DNA from: a phage
Direction: 5' to 3' (one strand)
NCBI GenBank assembly: GCA_013585095.1
Contig: GCA_013585095.1_3039.1
DNA: 64,000 nt
The translations under genes and the position numbers were made by a program. Shown here in pieces: positions 4,580-26,616 of this stretch; positions within the stretch are counted from its first letter, which is position 1, and each line of letters opens with the position of its first letter. The notes under the pieces are model-generated. The model saw nothing but the letters and a program-made list of their open reading frames with translations. It had not been told where the DNA came from and made no database searches.

Positions 4580-5137
4580 ATGTCAGAAACTAAGCCTAAA
4601 TATAATTACGTAAACAATAAAGAGCTTTTACAAGCTATTATTGATTGGAAAACAGAATTAGCAAATAATAAAGACCCAAATAAAGTAGTTCGTCAGAATG
4701 ATACTATCGGATTAGCCATTATGCTTATTGCAGAAGGCTTATCTAAACGTTTCAACTTTTCAGGATACACCCAGTCTTGGAAACAAGAAATGATTGCAGA
4801 TGGTATAGAAGCTTCTATTAAGGGGCTTCATAATTTTGATGAAACGAAATATAAAAACCCACATGCGTATATAACTCAAGCTTGTTTTAATGCATTCGTC
4901 CAGCGTATTAAAAAAGAACGTAAGGAAGTTGCAAAGAAATACAGTTACTTCGTTCACAATGTCTATGACAGTCGTGACGACGATATGGTTGCGTTAGTAG
5001 ATGAAACTTTTATTCAAGACATCTACGATAAAATGACGCATTACGAAGAATCAACCTATAGAACACCGGGGGCTGAAAAGAAAAGTGTTGTAGACGATTC
5101 TCCTAGTTTGGATTTTTTATATGAGGCTAACGATTAA
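4580..5137 (+). CDS. 55: late-transcription sigma factor gp55
   Basis: 185 aa from ATG after GAGG (ORF-track GTG at 4574 trimmed); N-terminus [17 protein letters not shown] as I recall T4 gp55; T4 synteny before a-gt. Confidence 0.92.
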
Positions 5138-6073: not shown

Positions 6074-7276
6074 ATGAAAGTATGCATTTTTATGGCTCGA
6101 GGTCTTGAAGGTTGCGGTGTAACTAAATTTTCTCTTGAGCAACGTGATTGGTTTATTAAAAATGGTCATGAAGTGACTTTGGTTTATGCTAAAGATAAAT
6201 CATTTACTCGTAATTGCGCGCATGATTATAAATCATTTTCAATTCCGGTTTTATTGGCAAAAGAATACGATAAAACACTTAAGCTGGTAAATGATTGTGA
6301 TATTCTAATTATCAATTCAGTTCCTGCTACTTCGGTTGAAGAAGACACTATTAATAACTATAAAAAAATTATTGATAACATTAAACCTTCTGTTCGTGTT
6401 GTAGTTTATCAGCATGACCATTCTTCTCTTTCTTTGCGTCGAAATTTGGGATTAGAAGAAACTGTTCGTCGAGCTGATGTTATTTTTAGTCATTCTGATA
6501 ATGGTGATTTTAATAAAGTTCTGATGAAAGAATGGTATCCAGAAACTGTTTCTCTGTTTGATGATATTGAAGAAGCACCGACAGTATATAACTTTCAGCC
6601 TCCTATGGATATTGCGAAGGTTCGGTCAACTTACTGGAAAGATGTTTCTGAAATTAACATGAATATCAACCGTTGGATTGGTCGTACGACTACATGGAAA
6701 GGTTTTTATCAGATGTTTGATTTTCACGAAAAACATCTTAAACCTGCAGGACTAAGTACTATTATGGAAGGTCTGGAACGTTCTCCAGCGTTCATTCCTA
6801 TTAAAGAAAAAGGAATTCCATACGAGTATTATCGTCTTCATCAAGTAGACCAAATTAAAATTGCTCCTAATTTGCCAACGCAAATTCTTGACCGTTATGT
6901 AAATAGCGAAATGCTTGAACGTATGAGTAAATCCGGTTTTGGTTATCAGTTGAGTAAGTTGGATAAAAAATATCTACAACGTTCTTTAGAATATACTCAT
7001 CTCGAGCTTGGTGCATGTGGAACAATTCCGGTATTTTGGAAATCTACTGGCGAAAATTTAAAATTCCGTGTTGATAATACTCCTTTGACCTCGCATGATA
7101 GCGGTATCATTTGGTTTGATGAAAATGATATGGAATCAACATTTGAACGTATTAAAGAACTGTCATCTGACCGAGCTCTTTATGACCGTGAGCGAGAAAA
7201 AGCATATGAATTTTTGTATCAGCACCAAGATTCAAGCTTCTGCTTTAAAGAACAGTTTGACATTATTACAAAATAA
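6074..7276 (+). CDS. agt: DNA alpha-glucosyltransferase
   Basis: 400 aa; N-terminus CIFMARGLEGCGVTKFSLEQRDWF as I recall T4 a-gt; T4 synteny between 55 and 47. Confidence 0.9.
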   Translation: MKVCIFMARGLEGCGVTKFSLEQRDWFIKNGHEVTLVYAKDKSFTRNCAHDYKSFSIPVLLAKEYDKTLKLVNDCDILIINSVPATSVEEDTINNYKKIIDNIKPSVRVVVYQHDHSSLSLRRNLGLEETVRRADVIFSHSDNGDFNKVLMKEWYPETVSLFDDIEEAPTVYNFQPPMDIAKVRSTYWKDVSEINMNINRWIGRTTTWKGFYQMFDFHEKHLKPAGLSTIMEGLERSPAFIPIKEKGIPYEYYRLHQVDQIKIAPNLPTQILDRYVNSEMLERMSKSGFGYQLSKLDKKYLQRSLEYTHLELGACGTIPVFWKSTGENLKFRVDNTPLTSHDSGIIWFDENDMESTFERIKELSSDRALYDREREKAYEFLYQHQDSSFCFKEQFDIITK

Positions 7277-14256: not shown

Positions 14257-16953
14257 ATGAAAGAATTTTATATCTCTATTGAAACAGTCGGAAATAACAT
14301 TGTTGAGCGTTATATTGATGAAAATGGAAATGAACGTACTCGTGAAGTAGAATATCTTCCAACTATGTTTAGGCATTGTAAGGAAGAGTCAAAGTACAAA
14401 GACATCTATGGTAAAAACTGCGCTCCTCAAAAATTTCCATCAATGAAAGATGCTCGAGATTGGATGAAACGAATGGAAGACATCGGTCTCGAAGCTCTCG
14501 GTATGAACGATTTTAAACTCGCTTATATCAGTGATACATACGGTTCAGAAATTGTTTATGACCGAAAATTTGTTCGTGTAGCTAACTGTGACATTGAGGT
14601 TACTGGTGATAAATTTCCTGACCCAATGAAATCTGAATATGAAATTGATGCTATCACTCATTACGATTCAATTGATGATCGTTTTTATGTTTTCGACCTT
14701 TTGAATTCAATGTACGGTTCAGTATCAAAATGGGATGCAAAGTTAGCTGCTAAGCTTGACTGTGAAGGTGGTGATGAAGTTCCTCAAGAAATTCTTGACC
14801 GAGTAATTTATATGCCATTCGATAATGAGCGTGATATGCTCATGGAATATATTAATCTTTGGGAACAGAAACGACCTGCTATTTTTACTGGTTGGAATAT
14901 TGAGGGATTTGACGTTCCGTATATCATGAATCGCGTTAAAATGGTTCTCGGTGAACGTAGTATGAAACGCTTCTCTCCAATCGGTCGAGTAAAATCTAAA
15001 CTTATCCAAAATATGTACGGTAGCAAAGAAATTTATTCTATTGATGGCGTATCTATTCTTGATTATTTAGATTTGTATAAGAAATTCGCATTTACTAATT
15101 TGCCGTCATTCTCTTTGGAATCAGTTGCTCAGCATGAAACCAAAAAAGGTAAATTACCATACGACGGTCCTATTAATAAACTTCGTGAGACTAATCATCA
15201 ACGATACATTAGTTATAACATCATTGACGTAGAATCAGTTCAAGCAATTGATAAAATTCGCGGGTTTATCGATCTAGTTTTAAGTATGTCTTATTACGCT
15301 AAAATGCCTTTTTCCGGTGTAATGAGTCCTATTAAAACTTGGGATGCTATTATTTTTAACTCATTGAAAGGTGAACATAAGGTTATTCCTCAACAAGGTT
15401 CGCACGTTAAACAGAGTTTTCCGGGTGCATTTGTGTTTGAACCTAAACCAATTGCTCGTCGATATATTATGAGTTTTGACTTGACGTCTCTGTATCCGAG
15501 CATTATTCGTCAGGTTAACATTAGTCCTGAGACTATTCGTGGGCAGTTTAAAGTTCATCCAATTCATGAATATATCGCAGGAACAGCTCCTAAACCAAGT
15601 GATGAATATTCTTGTTCTCCGAATGGATGGATGTATGATAAGCATCAAGAAGGTATCATTCCAAAGGAAATCGCTAAAGTATTTTTCCAGCGTAAAGATT
15701 GGAAAAAGAAAATGTTCGCTGAAGAAATGAATGCCGAAGCTATTAAAAAGATTATTATGAAAGGCGCAGGGTCTTGTTCAACTAAACCTGAAGTTGAACG
15801 ATATGTTAAGTTCAGTGATGATTTCTTAAATGAATTATCGAATTACACTGAATCTGTTCTTAATAGTCTGATCGAAGAATGTGAAAAAGCGGCTACACTT
15901 GCTAACACAAATCAGCTGAACCGTAAAATTCTTATTAACAGTCTTTATGGTGCTCTTGGTAATATTCATTTCCGTTACTATGATTTGCGAAATGCTACTG
16001 CTATCACAATTTTCGGCCAAGTTGGTATTCAGTGGATTGCTCGTAAAATTAATGAATATCTGAATAAAGTATGCGGAACTAATGGCGAAGATTTCATTGC
16101 AGCAGGTGATACTGATTCGGTATATGTTTGTGTAGATAAAGTTATTGAAAAAGTTGGTCTTGACCGATTCAAAGAGCAGAACGATTTAGTTGAATTCATG
16201 AATCAGTTCGGTAAGAAAAAGATGGAACCTATGATTGATGTTGCATATCGTGAGTTATGTGATTATATGAATAACCGCGAGCATCTGATGCATATGGACC
16301 GTGAAGCTATTTCTTGCCCTCCGCTTGGTTCAAAGGGTGTTGGTGGATTTTGGAAAGCGAAAAAGCGTTATGCTCTGAACGTTTATGATATGGAAGATAA
16401 GCGTTTTGCTGAACCACATCTAAAAATCATGGGTATGGAAACTCAGCAGAGTTCAACGCCTAAAGCGGTTCAAGAAGCTCTCGAAGAAAGTATTCGTCGT
16501 ATTCTTCAGGAAGGTGAAGAGTCTGTCCAAGAATATTACAAGAACTTCGAGAAAGAATATCGTCAACTTGACTATAAAGTTATTGCTGAAGTAAAAACTG
16601 CGAACGATATAGCGAAATATGATGATAAAGGTTGGCCAGGATTTAAATGTCCGTTCCATATTCGTGGTGTGCTAACTTATCGTCGAGCTGTTAGCGGTTT
16701 AGGTGTAGCTCCAATTTTGGATGGAAATAAAGTAATGGTTCTTCCATTGCGTGAAGGAAATCCATTTGGTGACAAATGCATTGCTTGGCCGTCGGGTACA
16801 GAACTTCCAAAAGAAATTCGTTCTGACGTACTGTCTTGGATTGACTACTCAACTTTGTTCCAAAAATCGTTTGTTAAACCGCTTGCGGGCATGTGTGAAT
16901 CGGCTGGTATGGACTATGAAGAAAAAGCTTCGTTAGACTTCCTGTTTGGCTGA
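14257..16953 (+). CDS. 43: DNA polymerase gp43 (family B)
   Basis: 898 aa; exonuclease motifs DIE/YNIIDV, polymerase motifs DLTSLYPS, KILINSLYG, GDTDS. Confidence 0.95.
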   Translation: MKEFYISIETVGNNIVERYIDENGNERTREVEYLPTMFRHCKEESKYKDIYGKNCAPQKFPSMKDARDWMKRMEDIGLEALGMNDFKLAYISDTYGSEIVYDRKFVRVANCDIEVTGDKFPDPMKSEYEIDAITHYDSIDDRFYVFDLLNSMYGSVSKWDAKLAAKLDCEGGDEVPQEILDRVIYMPFDNERDMLMEYINLWEQKRPAIFTGWNIEGFDVPYIMNRVKMVLGERSMKRFSPIGRVKSKLIQNMYGSKEIYSIDGVSILDYLDLYKKFAFTNLPSFSLESVAQHETKKGKLPYDGPINKLRETNHQRYISYNIIDVESVQAIDKIRGFIDLVLSMSYYAKMPFSGVMSPIKTWDAIIFNSLKGEHKVIPQQGSHVKQSFPGAFVFEPKPIARRYIMSFDLTSLYPSIIRQVNISPETIRGQFKVHPIHEYIAGTAPKPSDEYSCSPNGWMYDKHQEGIIPKEIAKVFFQRKDWKKKMFAEEMNAEAIKKIIMKGAGSCSTKPEVERYVKFSDDFLNELSNYTESVLNSLIEECEKAATLANTNQLNRKILINSLYGALGNIHFRYYDLRNATAITIFGQVGIQWIARKINEYLNKVCGTNGEDFIAAGDTDSVYVCVDKVIEKVGLDRFKEQNDLVEFMNQFGKKKMEPMIDVAYRELCDYMNNREHLMHMDREAISCPPLGSKGVGGFWKAKKRYALNVYDMEDKRFAEPHLKIMGMETQQSSTPKAVQEALEESIRRILQEGEESVQEYYKNFEKEYRQLDYKVIAEVKTANDIAKYDDKGWPGFKCPFHIRGVLTYRRAVSGLGVAPILDGNKVMVLPLREGNPFGDKCIAWPSGTELPKEIRSDVLSWIDYSTLFQKSFVKPLAGMCESAGMDYEEKASLDFLFG

Positions 16954-16966
16954 TAGAATAAATCTA

Positions 16967-16987
16967 GGGACCTCCGGGTCCTTTTTT
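16967..16987 (+). terminator. rho-independent terminator
   Basis: GGACC-TCCG-GGTCC then TTTTTT. Confidence 0.8.
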
Positions 16988-17050
16988 CATACAAGTAATA
17001 TAAATCTATACTTATGAAAAACAGATGATTCTGGACATTTAGAATTCCCT

Positions 17051-17133
17051 AAAAAATTTTCACAAAACTGTTTACAAGACTGTTCTTCCATGGTACTATA
17101 CAACTATCAACTAATACGGATTTGGAGAATAAA
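17051..17133 (+). promoter_or_regulatory. early promoter plus conserved leader cassette (copy 1 of 5)
   Basis: AAAATTTTCACAAAACTGTTTACA, 17 bp, TACTAT -10, then leader ACAACTATCAACTA..GGAG..AAAATG; near-identical copies at 36363, 44328, 44840, 48137. Confidence 0.6.
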
Positions 17134-17370
17134 ATGAAAATTGTTATGGGATGCTTAGCAGTTTGTTTAGTTGCATTAGCAGCAGTTCCATTTGTTAGTG
17201 TTGAAAATGATACTCAACCTGTGATTGAATCTAGCACCGTTATTCACACTAATGGTAAAATATCAGTTAAAATTGATGATAATCTTCATGTGAATACAAA
17301 TGGATCTTTAGGTGTGCAAATGGGTAATACCTGCATAAGCACTACTGGAGTAATTACTACTTGCATTTGA
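17134..17370 (+). CDS. small secreted protein (signal peptide)
   Basis: 78 aa from ATG (ORF-track TTG trimmed); N-terminal MKIVMGCLAVCLVALAAVPFVSV hydrophobic signal. Confidence 0.5.
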   Translation: MKIVMGCLAVCLVALAAVPFVSVENDTQPVIESSTVIHTNGKISVKIDDNLHVNTNGSLGVQMGNTCISTTGVITTCI

Positions 17371-17380
17371 GGAAATTATT

Positions 17381-17761
17381 ATGAAAATCGCTATTTTGGT
17401 TATTGCATTAGGTCTTACTGGTTGTGTATCTCAAGGACCGGTAGTAAATCAGTCTGATGTAGGAAAAATTGTAAACTGTTCAAGCAAATTTTATAATCCT
17501 AATGTCAAGTGTTATAAAGAAGCTCCAAAGCAAACAGTCGAACAAATGCAGGCGAATTTTGACGAAGCTATTCGTCCAGATGAATCTGCTCAAGCATATC
17601 GTAATTCTGATGTAATTACACGCGAAGAAAAAATTGAAAACTACTGCGCCGAAATTTGGGCTAATTGGGCTAATAATTACCAATGGCGTACTGGTAAAAA
17701 TGCTCCGATGGAGTATGTAGTGAATTCTTATAATTCATGTGTAAAAAATTTGACTAAGTGA
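17381..17761 (+). CDS. putative lipoprotein
   Basis: 126 aa; N-terminal MKIAILVIALGLTGC lipobox; Cys-containing mature part. Confidence 0.55.
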   Translation: MKIAILVIALGLTGCVSQGPVVNQSDVGKIVNCSSKFYNPNVKCYKEAPKQTVEQMQANFDEAIRPDESAQAYRNSDVITREEKIENYCAEIWANWANNYQWRTGKNAPMEYVVNSYNSCVKNLTK

Positions 17762-17768
17762 GGAAAAC

Positions 17769-18020
17769 ATGGAAACTTTAGTAGCAGGTTCAATTTTTAT
17801 GGTTTTAGTTTCAGGTGTGTTGGCTATTATTATATACATGCTTCCATGGTTTATCGCCTTGATGCGTGGGTCAAAATCGACAGTAGGAATCTTTTTCACA
17901 TCTTTACTGTTTAACTGGTCAATTATTGGTTGGTTTATTACATTTATTTGGTCAATTGCTGGTGAAACTAAAAAGTCTGCACAGCCAAATCAGGTAATTA
18001 TCATCAGAGAGAAAGAATGA
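17769..18020 (+). CDS. imm: immunity to superinfection membrane protein Imm
   Basis: 83 aa, two hydrophobic helices, located between 43 and 42 as in T4. Confidence 0.75.
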   Translation: METLVAGSIFMVLVSGVLAIIIYMLPWFIALMRGSKSTVGIFFTSLLFNWSIIGWFITFIWSIAGETKKSAQPNQVIIIREKE

Positions 18021-18166
18021 AAAGCAAAATTATAACAGTGTTGCTTTTAATCTTGATGGTTATAATAAGTATATACTATAGCGTAACGGTTCCTCTTATG
18101 ATTCCAACTATTATTTTAGGTTGGGGTTTATTACTGTTACAAGTTAAATATGAATGTATCAATTGA
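18017..18166 (+). CDS. hypothetical small membrane protein (49 aa)
   Basis: ATG overlaps imm stop; hydrophobic; read from sequence. Confidence 0.3.
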   Translation: MKSKIITVLLLILMVIISIYYSVTVPLMIPTIILGWGLLLLQVKYECIN

Positions 18167-18173
18167 GGTTTAA

Positions 18174-18914
18174 ATGATTAGTGACTCTATGACAGTTGAA
18201 GAAATCCGTCTTCATTTGGGGCTTGCATTAAAAGAAAAAGATTTCGTAGTTGATAAAACTGGTGTTAAAACTATTGAAATTATTGGCGCATCATTTGTAG
18301 CAGATGAACCGTTTATTTTTGGTGCTCTTAATGATGAATACATTCAGCGCGAACTTGAATGGTATAAATCTAAGAGCTTGTTTGTTAAAGATATTCCAGG
18401 TGAAACACCAAAGATTTGGCAGCAGGTAGCATCTTCTAAAGGCGAAATTAACTCGAATTATGGTTGGGCTATTTGGTCAGAAGATAACTATGCCCAGTAT
18501 GATATGTGTTTAGCTGAACTTGGTCAAAATCCTGATTCTCGGCGTGGTATCATGATTTATACTCGTCCATCCATGCAATTTGACTACAATAAAGATGGTA
18601 TGTCAGATTTCATGTGTACGAATACAGTACAGTATCTGATTCGTGATAAGAAAGTCAATGCAGTAGTAAGCATGCGTTCAAATGACGTGGTCTTCGGATT
18701 CCGTAATGATTATGCATGGCAAAAATACGTATTAGATAAATTAGTATCTGATTTGAATGCCGGCGATTCAACTCGTCAGTATAAAGCAGGTTCTATTATA
18801 TGGAATGTCGGAAGTCTTCATGTATATTCTCGTCATTTTTACTTGGTTGATCATTGGTGGAATACTGGCGAAACTCATATTGTGAAAAAAGACTATAAAG
18901 GTGAGTGGAAATGA
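18174..18914 (+). CDS. 42: dCMP hydroxymethylase gp42
   Basis: 246 aa, thymidylate-synthase-like; T4 synteny. Confidence 0.92.
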   Translation: MISDSMTVEEIRLHLGLALKEKDFVVDKTGVKTIEIIGASFVADEPFIFGALNDEYIQRELEWYKSKSLFVKDIPGETPKIWQQVASSKGEINSNYGWAIWSEDNYAQYDMCLAELGQNPDSRRGIMIYTRPSMQFDYNKDGMSDFMCTNTVQYLIRDKKVNAVVSMRSNDVVFGFRNDYAWQKYVLDKLVSDLNAGDSTRQYKAGSIIWNVGSLHVYSRHFYLVDHWWNTGETHIVKKDYKGEWK

Positions 18915-19753
18915 TTCAATTCGTAATTCCAAGTTATCAGCGTGTCGGGGCAGTTTCTGCCCTTGATATGTTTCCGACTGATTATGAACCCCATATTGTA
19001 GTGCGTGAACATGAAGAAAAAGCTTATTATGATGCCTATGGGTCTAGAGCTAAAATTATAACTATTCCTGATGATGTAAACGGAATTGCCGGTACTCGTA
19101 AAGCAATTACTGATATGTATGCAGGCCAACGAATCTGGATGATTGACGATGATACTACTATTCGTATGAGTTCAATGCGAAAAAGAGATGACCGTCGTTG
19201 TGTGGATAAAGTCAATCAATTGACTCATGAACAGTTCTATGAATTGATTCAATACGTCGAAGATGCCATGGATTGCGGGTATTATCACGGTCATGCTCGC
19301 CTACCAATTTTTAAAATTACTTCATCTTGGGGTAATTATCGTGAAAATTCATATGGATTCACGAATACATGGTATGACCTTGGAAAACTTACGACAGAAC
19401 AAATTGGGTATGGAAAAATTGATTTGTGCGAAGATATGTATGCATTTCTCAATTTAATTAATCAAGGTTATCCGCATTTGGCCTTGTTCAAATATCTAGT
19501 TGTATCTGGAAAAGCACAAGCTCCTGGCGGGTGCAGTTCAATTCGTAGTAATTCTAAACATAATAGAGCGCTTGAGCAAATCAATAGAGAGTTTCCAGAG
19601 CAAGCTCGTTGGAAAACATCGAATATTGAAAAACGAAAATCGTTGGGTGAAGAAGACGAGCCATTAAAGGTTCTTCGCATGTGTGTTTCACGTAAAGAAA
19701 AATCAGAAGCATTTCATAAGTTTAATGCTATTCATCCAATAGCAGTTGATTAA
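18911..19753 (+). CDS. DNA glycosyltransferase with DxD motif (occupies the T4 beta-gt locus; possibly beta-glucosyl-HMC alpha-glucosyltransferase type)
   Basis: 280 aa from ATG overlapping gene 42 stop; RIWMIDDDTT motif typical of GT-A enzymes; length and sequence unlike T4 beta-gt (351 aa) as I recall it. Confidence 0.6.
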   Translation: MIQFVIPSYQRVGAVSALDMFPTDYEPHIVVREHEEKAYYDAYGSRAKIITIPDDVNGIAGTRKAITDMYAGQRIWMIDDDTTIRMSSMRKRDDRRCVDKVNQLTHEQFYELIQYVEDAMDCGYYHGHARLPIFKITSSWGNYRENSYGFTNTWYDLGKLTTEQIGYGKIDLCEDMYAFLNLINQGYPHLALFKYLVVSGKAQAPGGCSSIRSNSKHNRALEQINREFPEQARWKTSNIEKRKSLGEEDEPLKVLRMCVSRKEKSEAFHKFNAIHPIAVD

Positions 19754-19777
19754 TGCCTAAATTTATTGTGTTATAAT
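19754..19777 (+). promoter_or_regulatory. possible MotA-box middle promoter upstream of uvsX
   Basis: degenerate box TGCCTAA, 11-nt spacer, TATAAT. Confidence 0.4.
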
Positions 19778-19830
19778 TACTCTATCTTTAACCAGTGAGG
19801 AAAATATAATGATGCCTATGGAAAAAATGA

Positions 19831-21012
19831 ATGTCTATTGCAGATTTAAAATCCCGTTTGATTAAAGCTTCCACTTCTAAAATGACTGCTGAACTGACTA
19901 CATCTAAATTCTTTAATGAAAAGGATGTAATCCGTACAAAAATCCCAATGCTTAATATTGCTATTTCTGGTGCGATTGATGGCGGCATGCAGTCTGGTTT
20001 AACTATTTTCGCAGGGCCTTCTAAACACTTTAAATCAAATATGTCTTTGACTATGGTTGCGGCATATTTGAACAAATATCCTGACGCGGTTTGTCTATTC
20101 TATGATAGTGAATTTGGTATTACTCCAGCTTATTTGCGATCTATGGGAGTTGACCCGGAACGAGTAATTCATACGCCGATTCAGTCAGTTGAACAGCTGA
20201 AAATTGATATGGTGAACCAGCTTGAAGCTATTGAGCGCGGTGAAAAAGTTATTGTATTCATCGACTCAATCGGTAATATGGCTTCTAAGAAAGAAACTGA
20301 AGATGCCTTGAATGAAAAATCTGTGGCAGATATGACTCGTGCTAAATCGCTGAAGTCATTATTCCGTATTGTTACTCCTTACTTTAGCATTAAAAATATT
20401 CCATGCGTTGCGGTTAACCATACAATTGAAACAATTGAAATGTTTAGTAAAACCGTGATGACAGGTGGTACAGGCGTAATGTATTCGGCTGATACCGTAT
20501 TCATTATCGGTAAACGTCAGATTAAAGATGGTTCTGATCTTCAAGGGTATCAATTTGTTCTAAATGTAGAAAAATCTCGTACCGTTAAAGAAAAAAGTAA
20601 ATTCTTTATTGATGTTAAATTTGACGGCGGTATCGATCCTTATTCTGGATTGTTAGATATGGCTCTAGAATTAGGATTCGTGGTAAAACCTAAAAATGGT
20701 TGGTATGCTCGTGAATTTCTTGATGAAGAAACCGGCGAGATGATTCGCGAAGAAAAATCTTGGCGTGCAAAAGATACCAACTGCACTACATTCTGGGGTC
20801 CTTTATTTAAGCATCAACCATTCCGTGATGCTATTAAGCGTGCTTATCAGTTAGGTGCTATTGATAGTAATGAAATTGTTGAAGCTGAAGTTGATGAGTT
20901 GATTAACTCAAAGGTTGAAAAATTTAAATCTCCAGAAAGTAAAAGTAAATCAGCTGCTGATTTAGAAACTGACCTAGATCAGCTAAGTGATATGGAAGAA
21001 TTTAATGAATAA
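19831..21012 (+). CDS. uvsX: RecA-like recombinase UvsX
   Basis: 393 aa; Walker A GPSKHFKS; acidic C-terminal tail. Confidence 0.93.
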   Translation: MSIADLKSRLIKASTSKMTAELTTSKFFNEKDVIRTKIPMLNIAISGAIDGGMQSGLTIFAGPSKHFKSNMSLTMVAAYLNKYPDAVCLFYDSEFGITPAYLRSMGVDPERVIHTPIQSVEQLKIDMVNQLEAIERGEKVIVFIDSIGNMASKKETEDALNEKSVADMTRAKSLKSLFRIVTPYFSIKNIPCVAVNHTIETIEMFSKTVMTGGTGVMYSADTVFIIGKRQIKDGSDLQGYQFVLNVEKSRTVKEKSKFFIDVKFDGGIDPYSGLLDMALELGFVVKPKNGWYAREFLDEETGEMIREEKSWRAKDTNCTTFWGPLFKHQPFRDAIKRAYQLGAIDSNEIVEAEVDELINSKVEKFKSPESKSKSAADLETDLDQLSDMEEFNE

Positions 21013-21349
21013 AGATGATTTAGATTTAGATCTAGAAATTATCGATGAATCCCCCTCTTCGGAGGGGGAAGAAGAAAGAAAAGAACGTCTTTTTAATGAA
21101 TCTCTTAAGATAATTAAATCTGCCATGGAAAATGTTATCCAGGAGATTGTCATTAAACTAGAAGATGGTTCTACACACATTGTGTATGTGACAAAATTAG
21201 ATTGGGTTGATGGAAAAGTCGTAATGGACTTTGCTGTTCTTGACCAAGAAAGAAAAGCTGAGTTAGCTCCTCATGTAGAAAAATGTATTACAATGCAACT
21301 ACAAGATGCATTTAATAAAAGATCAAAGAAAAAGTTTAAATTCTTTTAA
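21005..21349 (+). CDS. 40: head vertex assembly protein gp40
   Basis: ORF-track 20987 trimmed to ATG overlapping uvsX stop; position between uvsX and 41. Confidence 0.7.
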   Translation: MNKDDLDLDLEIIDESPSSEGEEERKERLFNESLKIIKSAMENVIQEIVIKLEDGSTHIVYVTKLDWVDGKVVMDFAVLDQERKAELAPHVEKCITMQLQDAFNKRSKKKFKFF

Positions 21350-21358
21350 GGAGTAAGT

Positions 21359-22786
21359 GTGGTAGAAATTATTCTTTCTCATCTTATATTTGATCAAGCT
21401 TATTTTTCAAAAGTTTGGCCATATATGGATTCAGAATATTTTGAAAGTGGTCCAGCTAAAAATACGTTCAAATTAATTAAATCTCATGTTAATGAGTATC
21501 ATAGCGTTCCATCTATTAATGCGTTAAATGTTGCATTAGAAAATAGTTCATTTACTGAAACAGAATATTCTGGTGTAAAAACACTTATTTCAAAACTGGC
21601 TGATTCTCCAGAAGACCACAGCTGGTTAGTAAAAGAAACAGAAAAATATGTTCAGCAAAGGGCGATGTTTAATGCTACGTCTAAAATAATCGAAATTCAA
21701 ACTAATGCTGAGCTTCCTCCGGAAAAACGAAATAAGAAAATGCCAGATGTAGGTGCTATTCCTGACATCATGCGGCAAGCATTATCTATTTCATTTGATA
21801 GTTACGTTGGTCATGATTGGATGGATGACTATGAAGCACGTTGGCTATCTTATATGAATAAAGCTCGTAAAGTTCCATTTAAACTCAGAATTCTAAACAA
21901 AATTACTAAAGGCGGAGCTGAGACTGGAACACTGAACGTTTTAATGGCTGGCGTTAACGTTGGTAAATCATTAGGATTGTGTTCATTAGCAGCAGATTAT
22001 TTACAGCTCGGACATAATGTTCTTTACATTTCCATGGAAATGGCAGAAGAAGTCTGTGCTAAGCGTATTGACGCTAACATGCTTGATGTTTCTCTTGATG
22101 ACATTGATGATGGGCATATTTCTTACGCTGAATATAAAGGAAAAATGGAAAAATGGCGTGAGAAATCTACCCTTGGTCGTTTAATCGTTAAGCAATATCC
22201 TACTGGTGGAGCAGACGCTAATACATTTCGATCACTTTTAAATGAATTGAAGCTCAAGAAGAATTTTGTTCCAACAATCATTATTGTCGACTATCTAGGT
22301 ATTTGTAAATCTTGCCGCATTAGAGTTTATTCAGAAAATAGTTACACAACTGTTAAAGCTATTGCAGAGGAATTGCGTGCTCTTGCTGTTGAAACCGAAA
22401 CTGTTCTTTGGACTGCAGCACAGGTTGGTAAACAAGCTTGGGATTCTTCTGATGTTAACATGAGCGATATTGCAGAATCTGCTGGTCTTCCAGCAACAGC
22501 TGATTTTATGCTTGCGGTCATTGAAACCGAGGAGCTAGCAGCTGCTGAACAACAACTCATTAAGCAAATCAAATCACGATATGGTGATAAGAACAAATGG
22601 AATAAGTTTTTGATGGGTGTTCAAAAAGGAAATCAAAAATGGGTAGAAATTGAACAAGATTCTACTCCAACCGAAGTGAGTGAAGTAGCAGGTTCACAAC
22701 AGATTCAGGCTGAACAGAATCGCTATCAAAGAAATGAATCCACTCGAGCTCAGTTAGATGCTTTGGCAAATGAATTAAAATTTTAG
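21359..22786 (+). CDS. 41: replicative DNA helicase gp41 (DnaB-like)
   Basis: 475 aa; Walker A GVNVGKS; GTG start after AAGGAG. Confidence 0.93.
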   Translation: MVEIILSHLIFDQAYFSKVWPYMDSEYFESGPAKNTFKLIKSHVNEYHSVPSINALNVALENSSFTETEYSGVKTLISKLADSPEDHSWLVKETEKYVQQRAMFNATSKIIEIQTNAELPPEKRNKKMPDVGAIPDIMRQALSISFDSYVGHDWMDDYEARWLSYMNKARKVPFKLRILNKITKGGAETGTLNVLMAGVNVGKSLGLCSLAADYLQLGHNVLYISMEMAEEVCAKRIDANMLDVSLDDIDDGHISYAEYKGKMEKWREKSTLGRLIVKQYPTGGADANTFRSLLNELKLKKNFVPTIIIVDYLGICKSCRIRVYSENSYTTVKAIAEELRALAVETETVLWTAAQVGKQAWDSSDVNMSDIAESAGLPATADFMLAVIETEELAAAEQQLIKQIKSRYGDKNKWNKFLMGVQKGNQKWVEIEQDSTPTEVSEVAGSQQIQAEQNRYQRNESTRAQLDALANELKF

Positions 22787-23641: not shown

Positions 23642-24274
23642 ATGATTTATTATATGCACAAAAATCCACCGTTTAAATACGGTAAATTTCCTGATGCACA
23701 ATGTTATAATATAACGCCTGATGAAAATAACCGTGGATATCTTATTGGCACAATTTTTGTAATTGTTAAAGATAACGAAATCGTTGCCTGGGCAGATTTT
23801 AAAGGTACAACATATGATGTTAATCCGGTGCCTTTCACATATTACAATTTAATGGATTTGGCATACGATTATAATTGGTTTAATCATGACACTTTGGCTC
23901 ATATTGAAGGTGTAGGATTTGATATTTCATATTCGGAATACACTTTAAGCCCTATGAGTCGAGCCCATAAAGAACCTGAATATTTTTCATTTAGGAAACG
24001 TGTAAACTTTAAACGCAGCACAGAGTATGTCGGTGGAATCTTTGTTAAAGATAATCGAATTATTCGTATTAATTATCCTTTGAGCGTTAGTCAAAAAGAT
24101 ATTGATGTTGATTTAGATTTCACTGAAAATAATATTAATAATATTGCTTCTGTGTATTTTGGTATCGATCACAAAATTGTAATATGTGGATATGAATTAC
24201 CGTTTGAAGAACAGCCTAAAGTAAAAGTTTCTATTGACGATCAAATTTTTAATGCTTTTATGAATAAAGGTTAA
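23642..24274 (+). CDS. hypothetical protein (T4 61.2 position), internally duplicated
   Basis: 210 aa; two VKDN-containing modules; C-terminal SIDDQIFNAFMNKG shared with next ORF. Confidence 0.55.
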   Translation: MIYYMHKNPPFKYGKFPDAQCYNITPDENNRGYLIGTIFVIVKDNEIVAWADFKGTTYDVNPVPFTYYNLMDLAYDYNWFNHDTLAHIEGVGFDISYSEYTLSPMSRAHKEPEYFSFRKRVNFKRSTEYVGGIFVKDNRIIRINYPLSVSQKDIDVDLDFTENNINNIASVYFGIDHKIVICGYELPFEEQPKVKVSIDDQIFNAFMNKG

Positions 24275-24275
24275 T

Positions 24276-24632
24276 ATGTATAGTTCTGAATTTTCATATT
24301 TAAAAATGGAAAAAATTTCATACGATTTCATAGATGAAAAGGTTTATTACAGTTTCCATGAACCGCGTTTTAATAGTGAGGTTGGGTTTATTGTAGTAAA
24401 AGACAATTTCATTTTAAAGATATATTCGGCATTAAAGGATTTTCACTACGAAAATATTAACCTAAAATTTGATAAAGAAAACGTTCGTAATTGTGCAGTA
24501 ACAATTACAGGAAATAAAGGTACATGTGTTATGCTATCTGATGAAATTAATGATTTACTAAATGATGCAGAAAATATTACTGCGCCATCTATTGATGACC
24601 AAATTTTTAATGCTTTTATGAATAGAGGTTAA
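24276..24632 (+). CDS. hypothetical protein, paralog of upstream ORF (T4 61.1 position)
   Basis: 118 aa; one VKDN module; C-terminal SIDDQIFNAFMNRG. Confidence 0.55.
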   Translation: MYSSEFSYLKMEKISYDFIDEKVYYSFHEPRFNSEVGFIVVKDNFILKIYSALKDFHYENINLKFDKENVRNCAVTITGNKGTCVMLSDEINDLLNDAENITAPSIDDQIFNAFMNRG

Positions 24633-25829: not shown

Positions 25830-26026
25830 ATTAACCCAACCAAAGCAAATGCTAAATCTACGAATGTATCAAGAGTAATTACTGGAATATTAACACCATG
25901 AGCAATAGCAATTGGTGATAAAACAAAATTCCAGAGTAAAATTCCTATCATAGCAGAAATAGTAAAAGCTATACGTTTTTTATTACCTTTTATGGCATTA
26001 ACAAGTGCCATTAATTTTTGTACCAT
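25826..26026 (-). CDS. hypothetical two-helix membrane protein, convergent with gene 61
   Basis: 66-aa ORF; AAGGAGG SD 4 nt before ATG; 3' end overlaps gene 61 stop by 4 nt; fills an otherwise non-coding gap. Confidence 0.5.
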   Translation of the reverse strand: MVQKLMALVNAIKGNKKRIAFTISAMIGILLWNFVLSPIAIAHGVNIPVITLDTFVDLAFALVGLI

Positions 26027-26039
26027 ATGTCCTCCTTGT

Positions 26040-26063
26040 TGCTTTATATATTTATTGTATAAT
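26040..26063 (+). promoter_or_regulatory. MotA-box middle promoter upstream of gene 56
   Basis: TTGCTTTA box, 11-nt spacer, TATAAT. Confidence 0.55.
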
Positions 26064-26097
26064 TAATCTACTAACCCATGAATTGAAAGGAAAAATA

Positions 26098-26616
26098 ATG
26101 GCTTACTTTAATGAATGTGCTCATTTGATCGAAGGTGTTGATAAAGCAAATCGTGCATATGCTGAGAATATTATGCACAATATTGACCCACTGCAGGTTA
26201 TGCTTGATATGCAGCGGCATTTACAGATTCGTTTGGCTAATGATAAACCAGAAACAAATCGTCATCCTGATTCACTTGAAACCGCAGGAGAAGTTCTTGC
26301 TTGGTTGCGAAACCAAGACGATTATATCGCAGATGAAACTCGCGAACTATATACTTCTCTTGGTGGTATGAGTAATGGTGAAAAAGAAGCTTCTGCTGTA
26401 TGGAAACCTTGGAAGAAACGTTATTCTGAAATGCAATCCAAGAAAATTCAAGATTTATCTCCCGAAGATCAGCTTGAAATTAAATTTGAACTGATTGACC
26501 AATTTCACTTTTTCATGAATAAATTTATTGCTCTTGGAATGTCAGCTGAAGAAATCTTTAAACTTTATTACCTGAAAAATGCTGAAAACTTCGCTCGTCA
26601 AGACCGAGGTTATTAA
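26098..26616 (+). CDS. 56: dCTP pyrophosphatase gp56
   Basis: ORF-track 26005 trimmed to MAYFNECAHLIEGVD after GGAAAAATA; 172 aa; C-terminal FKLYYLKNAENFARQDRGY as I recall T4 gp56. Confidence 0.88.
   Translation: MAYFNECAHLIEGVDKANRAYAENIMHNIDPLQVMLDMQRHLQIRLANDKPETNRHPDSLETAGEVLAWLRNQDDYIADETRELYTSLGGMSNGEKEASAVWKPWKKRYSEMQSKKIQDLSPEDQLEIKFELIDQFHFFMNKFIALGMSAEEIFKLYYLKNAENFARQDRGY

Follow-up and report, generated by a model that had tools for sequence, protein, structure and literature searches.

The phage DNA analyzed here (a stretch of 64,000 nucleotides, hereafter the window) comes from a Tequatrovirus; the T4-like phages of Escherichia and Shigella that match it best are 96.7-97.6% identical to it at the nucleotide level across 24 kb. 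Downstream of the gene 43 DNA polymerase (14257..16953) and upstream of the gene 41 helicase (21359..22786), a plus-strand ORF designated ba-gt lies between gene 42 and uvsX (19831..21012; Pfam T4_UVSX_C, E=4.7e-39). An initial annotation had placed a 280-residue protein with a WMIDDDTT motif at this position, and we located the ORF, the motif (residues 76-83, nucleotides 19136-19159) and both neighbors as described. The ORF has its stop codon ending at 19753 and two potential starts, GTG at 18905 and ATG at 18911, of which the ATG is common to all annotated homologs fetched. It is not a chance reading frame, as can be seen from its match to PHROG 842 (E=6e-89) and from 475 matching phage records. 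Features of the locus and of the associated pathway genes are collected in Table 1.

Table 1. Coordinates of ba-gt, its functional motifs and its pathway partners in the window
Feature	Position	Strand	Description and evidence
gene 42, dCMP hydroxymethylase	18174..18914	+	Pfam Thymidylat_synt, E=1.1e-15; so annotated in homologous records
Segment without T4 nucleotide homology	18897..19842		946 bp, replaces the 1941-bp b-gt and segA of T4; blastn
ATGA overlap of gene 42 stop with ba-gt start	18911..18914	+	sequence
ba-gt / ggt	18911..19753	+	predicted beta-1,6-glucosyl-(alpha-glucosyl-hmC) DNA glucosyltransferase, 280 aa, TAGT family, GT-A fold
Arg11 codon (CGT) in the N-terminal IPSYQR motif	18941..18943	+	family-invariant; aligns with Arg of IPTYNR in 9jma
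D79-D80-D81, DxD motif	19145..19153	+	right after beta-strand 74-78; predicted metal/UDP-glucose diphosphate binding
Asp175 codon, in CEDMY	19433..19435	+	188/188; candidate catalytic base
a-gt, DNA alpha-glucosyltransferase (GT-B)	6074..7276	+	PDB 1xv5, E=5.6e-258, full length; PF11440 AGT, E=1.8e-237
gene 56, dCTPase/dUTPase ORF	26005..26616	+	PHROG 173 NTP pyrophosphohydrolase, E=5.2e-44; T4 gene 56 position by gene 61

The four-nucleotide overlap with gene 42, together with the lack of any promoter-like site above chance, suggests that gene 42 and ba-gt are probably co-transcribed and translationally coupled. Between positions 17000 and 20200 we found 13 promoter-like sites versus 14.6 expected from shuffled sequences, and two terminator-like sites versus 1.6 expected; since the scan is at the shuffle expectation, no dedicated ba-gt promoter is claimed. 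A tRNA scan of the window gave no hits, which has no bearing on ba-gt. Further upstream, gene 43 is separated from imm.1 by an ORF of 82 aa for which a hydrophobic segment is predicted at the N-terminus (17122-17370; PHROG 4189, function unknown); this ORF falls within a stretch lacking a T4 counterpart (17148-17380), and phage T2 has a comparable 252-nt ORF there (RB51ORF048).

The ba-gt protein matches the PHROG 842 profile 'beta-glucosyl-HMC-alpha-glucosyltransferase' over positions 4-269 of 270, as well as the Pfam family PF20691 'TET-associated glycosyltransferase' (TAGT; 39.1 bits, above the gathering score of 27.5, profile positions 2-205 of 205); NCBIfam has no model for either glucosyltransferase. 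The 475 phage records contain the gene at full length with at least 90% nucleotide identity, and many of them annotate it as beta-glucosyl-HMC-alpha-glucosyltransferase. Both T2 (MH751506) and T6 (MH550421) have an annotated gene, ggt, at this position, flanked by 42 and uvsX. The T2/T6 enzyme, also designated ba-gt, g-gt or TAGT, is presumably EC 2.4.1.28, and its gene was reportedly first cloned by Winkler and Rueger in 1993. Full-length near-identity, the shared slot and the PHROG 842 and PF20691 matches thus support the suggestion that the window encodes the second glucosyltransferase of T2 and T6, and comparison with that enzyme and with glycosyltransferase families places the protein in the T2/T6 ba-gt family rather than in an unrelated enzyme class. 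Public annotation of true ba-gt genes is inconsistent, with labels such as 'b-gt', 'beta-glucosyltransferase', 'thymidylate synthase' or 'hypothetical protein', so that a glucosylation type inferred from gene names would go wrong.

In T4, the same interval contains the beta-glucosyltransferase gene b-gt (351 aa), as the initial annotation had stated, and additionally the GIY-YIG homing endonuclease gene segA. A blastn comparison of window positions 16900-21400 with the T4 locus and its annotation demonstrated that T4 homology stops at 18896, about 18 nt short of the gene 42 end, and restarts at 19843, 12 nt inside uvsX, the flanks on both sides (gene 42 3' end, uvsX 5' end) being 89-96% identical to T4; over its own region, gene 42 has 95.6% nucleotide identity to T4. 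No homolog of T4 b-gt was found in the 64-kb window, which is the portion of the genome covered (best tblastn E=1.4), and a homolog of segA is likewise absent from it. Comparison of the ba-gt protein with T4 b-gt gave a best BLASTP E-value of 0.28 over 10 residues, and PF09198, the model of the T4-type beta-glucosyltransferase, had no match on it at E<=1. Assignment of ba-gt as a T4-type enzyme (PF09198, GT-B) is therefore ruled out by the absence of similarity and by its GT-A fold. The statement that T4 b-gt has no DxD holds in the functional sense, although taken literally it fails, since a DYD at residue 58 happens to fit the D-x-D pattern.

The T4 arrangement is also the less common of the two. 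T4-type b-gt occurs in 29 records of the phage collection, mostly T4 itself, versus the 475 carrying ba-gt, which rules out that ba-gt is an insertion peculiar to the window phage. A 2026 survey found alpha-GT together with beta-GT in just 6 of 753 GT-encoding phage genomes, the usual state being a TAGT paired with either alpha-GT or beta-GT (PMC13216743). On the basis of these counts and survey figures, the window represents the common arrangement and T4 the exception: ba-gt is the normal occupant of the 42/uvsX slot in T4 relatives and the majority state in the genus.

Searches of PDB with the ba-gt sequence gave chance matches only (E>1), and neither sequence nor profile searches of PDB identified a solved structure for any member of the family; the fold test therefore rests on a model, and the residue roles on the model and on conservation. 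An alignment of 48 full-length homologs, collected by profile searches down to ~13% identity, was used as input for AlphaFold2. The resulting model (mean pLDDT 93.3, pTM 0.91, 0 segments below 50) consists of one Rossmann-like alpha/beta/alpha domain and can be superposed on GT-A enzymes of known structure, and the DDD triplet follows strand 74-78, which is the canonical DxD position. The GT-A type proposed earlier for this protein is thus supported by both the predicted model and the place of its DxD motif. The Pfam GT2 model had no match on the protein at E<=1; the 48-sequence profile aligned the triplet with LDDD of the GT2 enzyme 9jma at a weak E-value of 0.1.

An exhaustive profile search recovered 5499 cluster representatives at E<=0.001. 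Residue conservation was taken from this representative search, as the IMG/VR scan yielded five loci, too few for allele statistics. In an alignment of 188 sequences (the window protein and 187 collected homologs, with a median identity of 20% to the window protein), D80 and D175 are present in all 188 and D79 and D81 in 186 each, and the triplet is invariant in a further alignment of homologs; R11 is conserved in 186 of 186 ungapped sequences, R63 in 178 of 188, G206 and G207 in 182 of 188 each, and R212 in 180 of 182. Based on the model and this conservation, ba-gt would act as a single-domain GT-A (GT2-like) inverting transferase in which D79-D80-D81 are predicted to hold a divalent metal and the UDP diphosphate; metal dependence is predicted from the DxD motif. 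As an invariant acidic residue, and given the general mechanism of inverting GT-A enzymes, D175 is a candidate catalytic base. The arginines R11, R63 and R212 may contact the nucleotide, phosphate or DNA.

At the allele level the window protein is very close to enzymes of well-known phages. Compared with T2, three of 280 residues differ (R11H, H106R, P251S), and compared with T6 MH550421 there are two substitutions (Y40N and D55G) and a stop codon. The sole difference from RB14, Solly and JK1 is H106R; D24N and H106R distinguish the window protein from QOTSP, and eight residues from EL, whose ba-gt allele is full length and retains R11. One independent IMG/VR contig encodes exactly the same protein although its gene differs at seven nucleotides, all of them silent, a pattern indicative of purifying selection. 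This observation bears on the possibility that ba-gt is a decaying remnant, unexpressed or inactive. Lesions do occur in laboratory references (an amber codon in MH550421, an Asp loss in AP018814, R11H in T2), and the gene is dispensable in the laboratory, where T6 deletions are viable (PMC11078745; bioRxiv 10.64898/2026.02.25.707755). In the window, however, the ORF is full length with R11, R63, D79-81, D175, G206-G207 and R212 all present, its ATGA coupling to gene 42 is kept and the protein is under apparent purifying selection, so that decay is improbable in the extreme.

The reference-phage alleles themselves deserve attention. All seven T2 records and SV76 have CAT (His) at ba-gt codon 11 (5096-5098 of the retrieved T2 MH751506 locus, minus strand), and over the 86-nt stretch around this codon no other record is identical to T2; Arg11 is found in RB14, T6, QOTSP, Solly, EL, JK1, five IMG/VR loci and the window. 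T6 MH550421 has TAG in place of CAG at ggt codon 10 (4951-4953 of the retrieved locus, minus strand), and its CDS is annotated from Met20 as a 261-aa protein, which would drop the first beta-strand and the IPSYQR motif. Its 86-nt stretch around codon 10 is unmatched by any other of 473 matching records, and the amber codon must have arisen by mutation in the stock or by an error in sequencing. Another T6 sequence, AP018814 (RefSeq NC_054907; 1140-1145 of the retrieved locus), has two instead of three GAT codons in the GAT-GAT-GAT run, so that its 279-aa protein reads DD in place of DDD; as NC_054907 is the RefSeq entry for T6, it may underlie T6 TAGT models in the literature. Because R11 and DDD are invariant, these variants in laboratory stocks have the look of alleles with lost or reduced function, or else of sequencing errors. 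It is conceivable, if somewhat doubtful, that the window carries the intact wild-type ba-gt and that the T2 and T6 laboratory references are each damaged at family-invariant positions.

The window contains everything needed to make alpha-glucosyl-hmC and to extend it. The gene 42 product would make hm-dCMP, the base that is later glucosylated, and gp56 would deplete the precursor pool of dCTP, leaving hm-dCTP as the sole form for the DNA polymerase to incorporate; the true start of gene 56 is probably an internal ATG. The alpha-glucosyltransferase would then add an alpha-linked glucose to about three quarters of the hmC residues, providing the acceptor to which ba-gt is expected to attach, with UDP-glucose as donor, another glucose by a beta-1,6 linkage, yielding gentiobiosyl-hmC. 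[quoted passage not shown] The window alpha-glucosyltransferase differs from that of EL at 32 of 400 residues, clustered in residues 47-118 and 221-298, and this two-patch pattern suggests mosaic recombination within the gene.

Sequence identity, synteny, fold, motif conservation, partner genes and the absence of beta-gt were all computed for the window. By analogy with the orthologs, 18911..19753 very probably encodes a functional T2/T6-type beta-alpha-glucosyltransferase. A TAGT transferase of another specificity, using a different donor sugar or acting on hmC and leaving the DNA without gentiobiose, could be imagined in view of the size of the family (the 5499 representatives) and of the occurrence of TAGT members in phages that have beta-gt or lack any other GT, from which it follows that specificities within the family probably vary (PMC13216743). 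For the window protein such a change is highly unlikely: it shares ~99% amino acid identity with enzymes of phages in which gentiobiosyl-hmC was measured, its synteny and alpha-gt partner are unchanged, and one to three conservative substitutions outside the invariant positions make a switch in specificity unlikely.

How much gentiobiosyl-hmC is to be expected can be approached through phages of known DNA composition. HPLC/MS of Durham Tequatrovirus phages distinguished two groups, neither of which had a beta-glucosyl form: Solly, QOTSP and five others contain about one third 5-hmdC, about two thirds alpha-gentiobiosyl-mdC and traces of alpha-glucosyl-mdC, and EL has an intermediate 1:2:2 pattern (PMC13390438). 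Of the intermediate group, to which EL, Geo and BGP belong, our comparison covers the EL allele. Between the classical phages the content of gentiobiosyl-hmC ranges from ~5% in T2 to ~72% in T6 (PMC13390438; bioRxiv 10.64898/2026.02.25.707755). With moderate confidence, and by analogy with these phages, we predict a T6/Solly-like pattern for the window phage, with mostly gentiobiosyl-hmC and little alpha-glucosyl-hmC rather than the 5% of T2, because its allele is one residue from Solly, two from QOTSP and eight from EL, and because homologs of T4 Dam, SegF and the EL-specific ORF are absent from the window. Since beta-gt is also absent from it, approximately 1/4 to 1/3 of hmC should carry no glucose. 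In the window 176 nt lie between gene 61 and gene 56 (25830-26004), where T4 has dam, and this organization matches the Durham high-gentiobiosyl group; the link between dam absence and that group is correlative, drawn from 10 phages, rather than mechanistic.

We also observed a full-length AdfA (anti-DarT factor A, gene 61.2; 23642-24274, Pfam E=3.2e-139), directly followed by a 118-aa paralog of its C-terminal half (24276-24632; 37% identity, E=6e-11). Of these two forms, the annotation lists just the long one in T6 and just the short one in T2; the window and phage EL have both in tandem.

The quantitative part of the gentiobiosylation prediction is soft, because the T2 and T6 enzymes are few residues apart yet give 5% versus 72%, and EL is intermediate. 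The window enzyme might accordingly be functional at a low, T2-like level, with virion DNA consisting mainly of alpha-glucosyl-hmC and a few percent of gentiobiosyl-hmC: the T2 protein is just three residues away, EL-type phages are intermediate, and expression, alpha-gt or further genes may influence the level. We consider this outcome unlikely, given that the R11H substitution of T2 affects a residue that is Arg in 186 of 186 sequences and in the window, that Solly and QOTSP, at one and two residues' distance, both reach about two thirds gentiobiosyl, and that H106 is shared with T6. R11H is itself a candidate explanation of the T2/T6 difference, for which the literature covered, with older work outside it, offered none. 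If R11H is hypomorphic, it would explain the 65-year-old contrast between T2 and T6 and place the window phage at the high T6/Solly-like level; the hypothesis concerns related loci, the window allele being intact.

The type of sugar on hmC decides which host defenses a T-even phage escapes. GmrSD targets both glucosyl stereoisomers and gentiobiosyl-hmC (PMC13216743), and BrxU cut the DNA of each of the 12 modified Durham phages (PMC13390438). Brig1 excises alpha-glucosyl-hmC and does not degrade T6 DNA, but deletion of ba-gt in T6 makes the DNA degradable and the phage more Brig1-sensitive (PMC11078745). The BapA glucosidase releases no glucose from gentiobiose, the DNA of the T6 deletion mutant being its substrate, and Brig3 attacks the ~25% bare hmC of T2/T6-type genomes (bioRxiv 10.64898/2026.02.25.707755). 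DNA with gentiobiosyl-hmC thus resists Brig1 in vitro and BapA and is still cut by GmrSD/BrxU-type enzymes, and the bare hmC of phages lacking beta-gt, about one quarter, is a target of Brig3 and McrBC-type systems. The presence of ba-gt and alpha-gt without beta-gt is therefore a useful predictor for host range and phage-therapy choices. The identity of the gene, its GT-A fold, its synteny with T4 b-gt, gentiobiosylation and the consequences for defense are already published; as the prediction rule is published too and the gene occurs in hundreds of sequenced phages, the window adds no new biology.

Among known systems the T2/T6 enzymes are the closest, sharing with the window protein its length of 280 aa, ~99% amino acid identity, the 42/uvsX slot, the ATGA overlap with gene 42, the alpha-gt partner and the invariant residues. 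They differ in that T2 and most relatives have R106 where the window and T6 have H106, in that T2 has His in place of Arg11, and in the amber codon and Asp deletion of two T6 records, both absent from the window; there is no sign that the window protein functions differently from the wild-type enzyme of the T6 type. T4 b-gt (PF09198, GT-B, PDB 1JG7) occupies the syntenic slot and is likewise an inverting enzyme that uses UDP-glucose to form a beta linkage on phage DNA after replication (PMC13216743). In contrast to ba-gt, it is a two-domain GT-B protein rather than a single-domain GT-A protein, its acceptor is bare hmC instead of alpha-glucosyl-hmC, and it is accompanied by segA. The cellular GT2-type GT-A enzymes (AvpGT 9jma, TarS 5tze, TarP 6h1j, SpsA 1h7l, BcsA 4p00) share 7-16% identity with ba-gt and act on lipid, teichoic acid or glycan acceptors, whereas ba-gt is a soluble single-domain protein with a ~70-residue family-specific C-terminal extension, and its acceptor is a sugar on duplex DNA. 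Finally, the arabinosyl-transferase systems of RB69, Bas46-47 and NP-type Mosigvirus resemble the alpha-gt/ba-gt pair in using two sequential transferases to build a mono- or disaccharide on a modified cytosine, and differ from it in the sugar (arabinose), the 5-hydroxy-dC precursor and the gene locations (PMC13390438).
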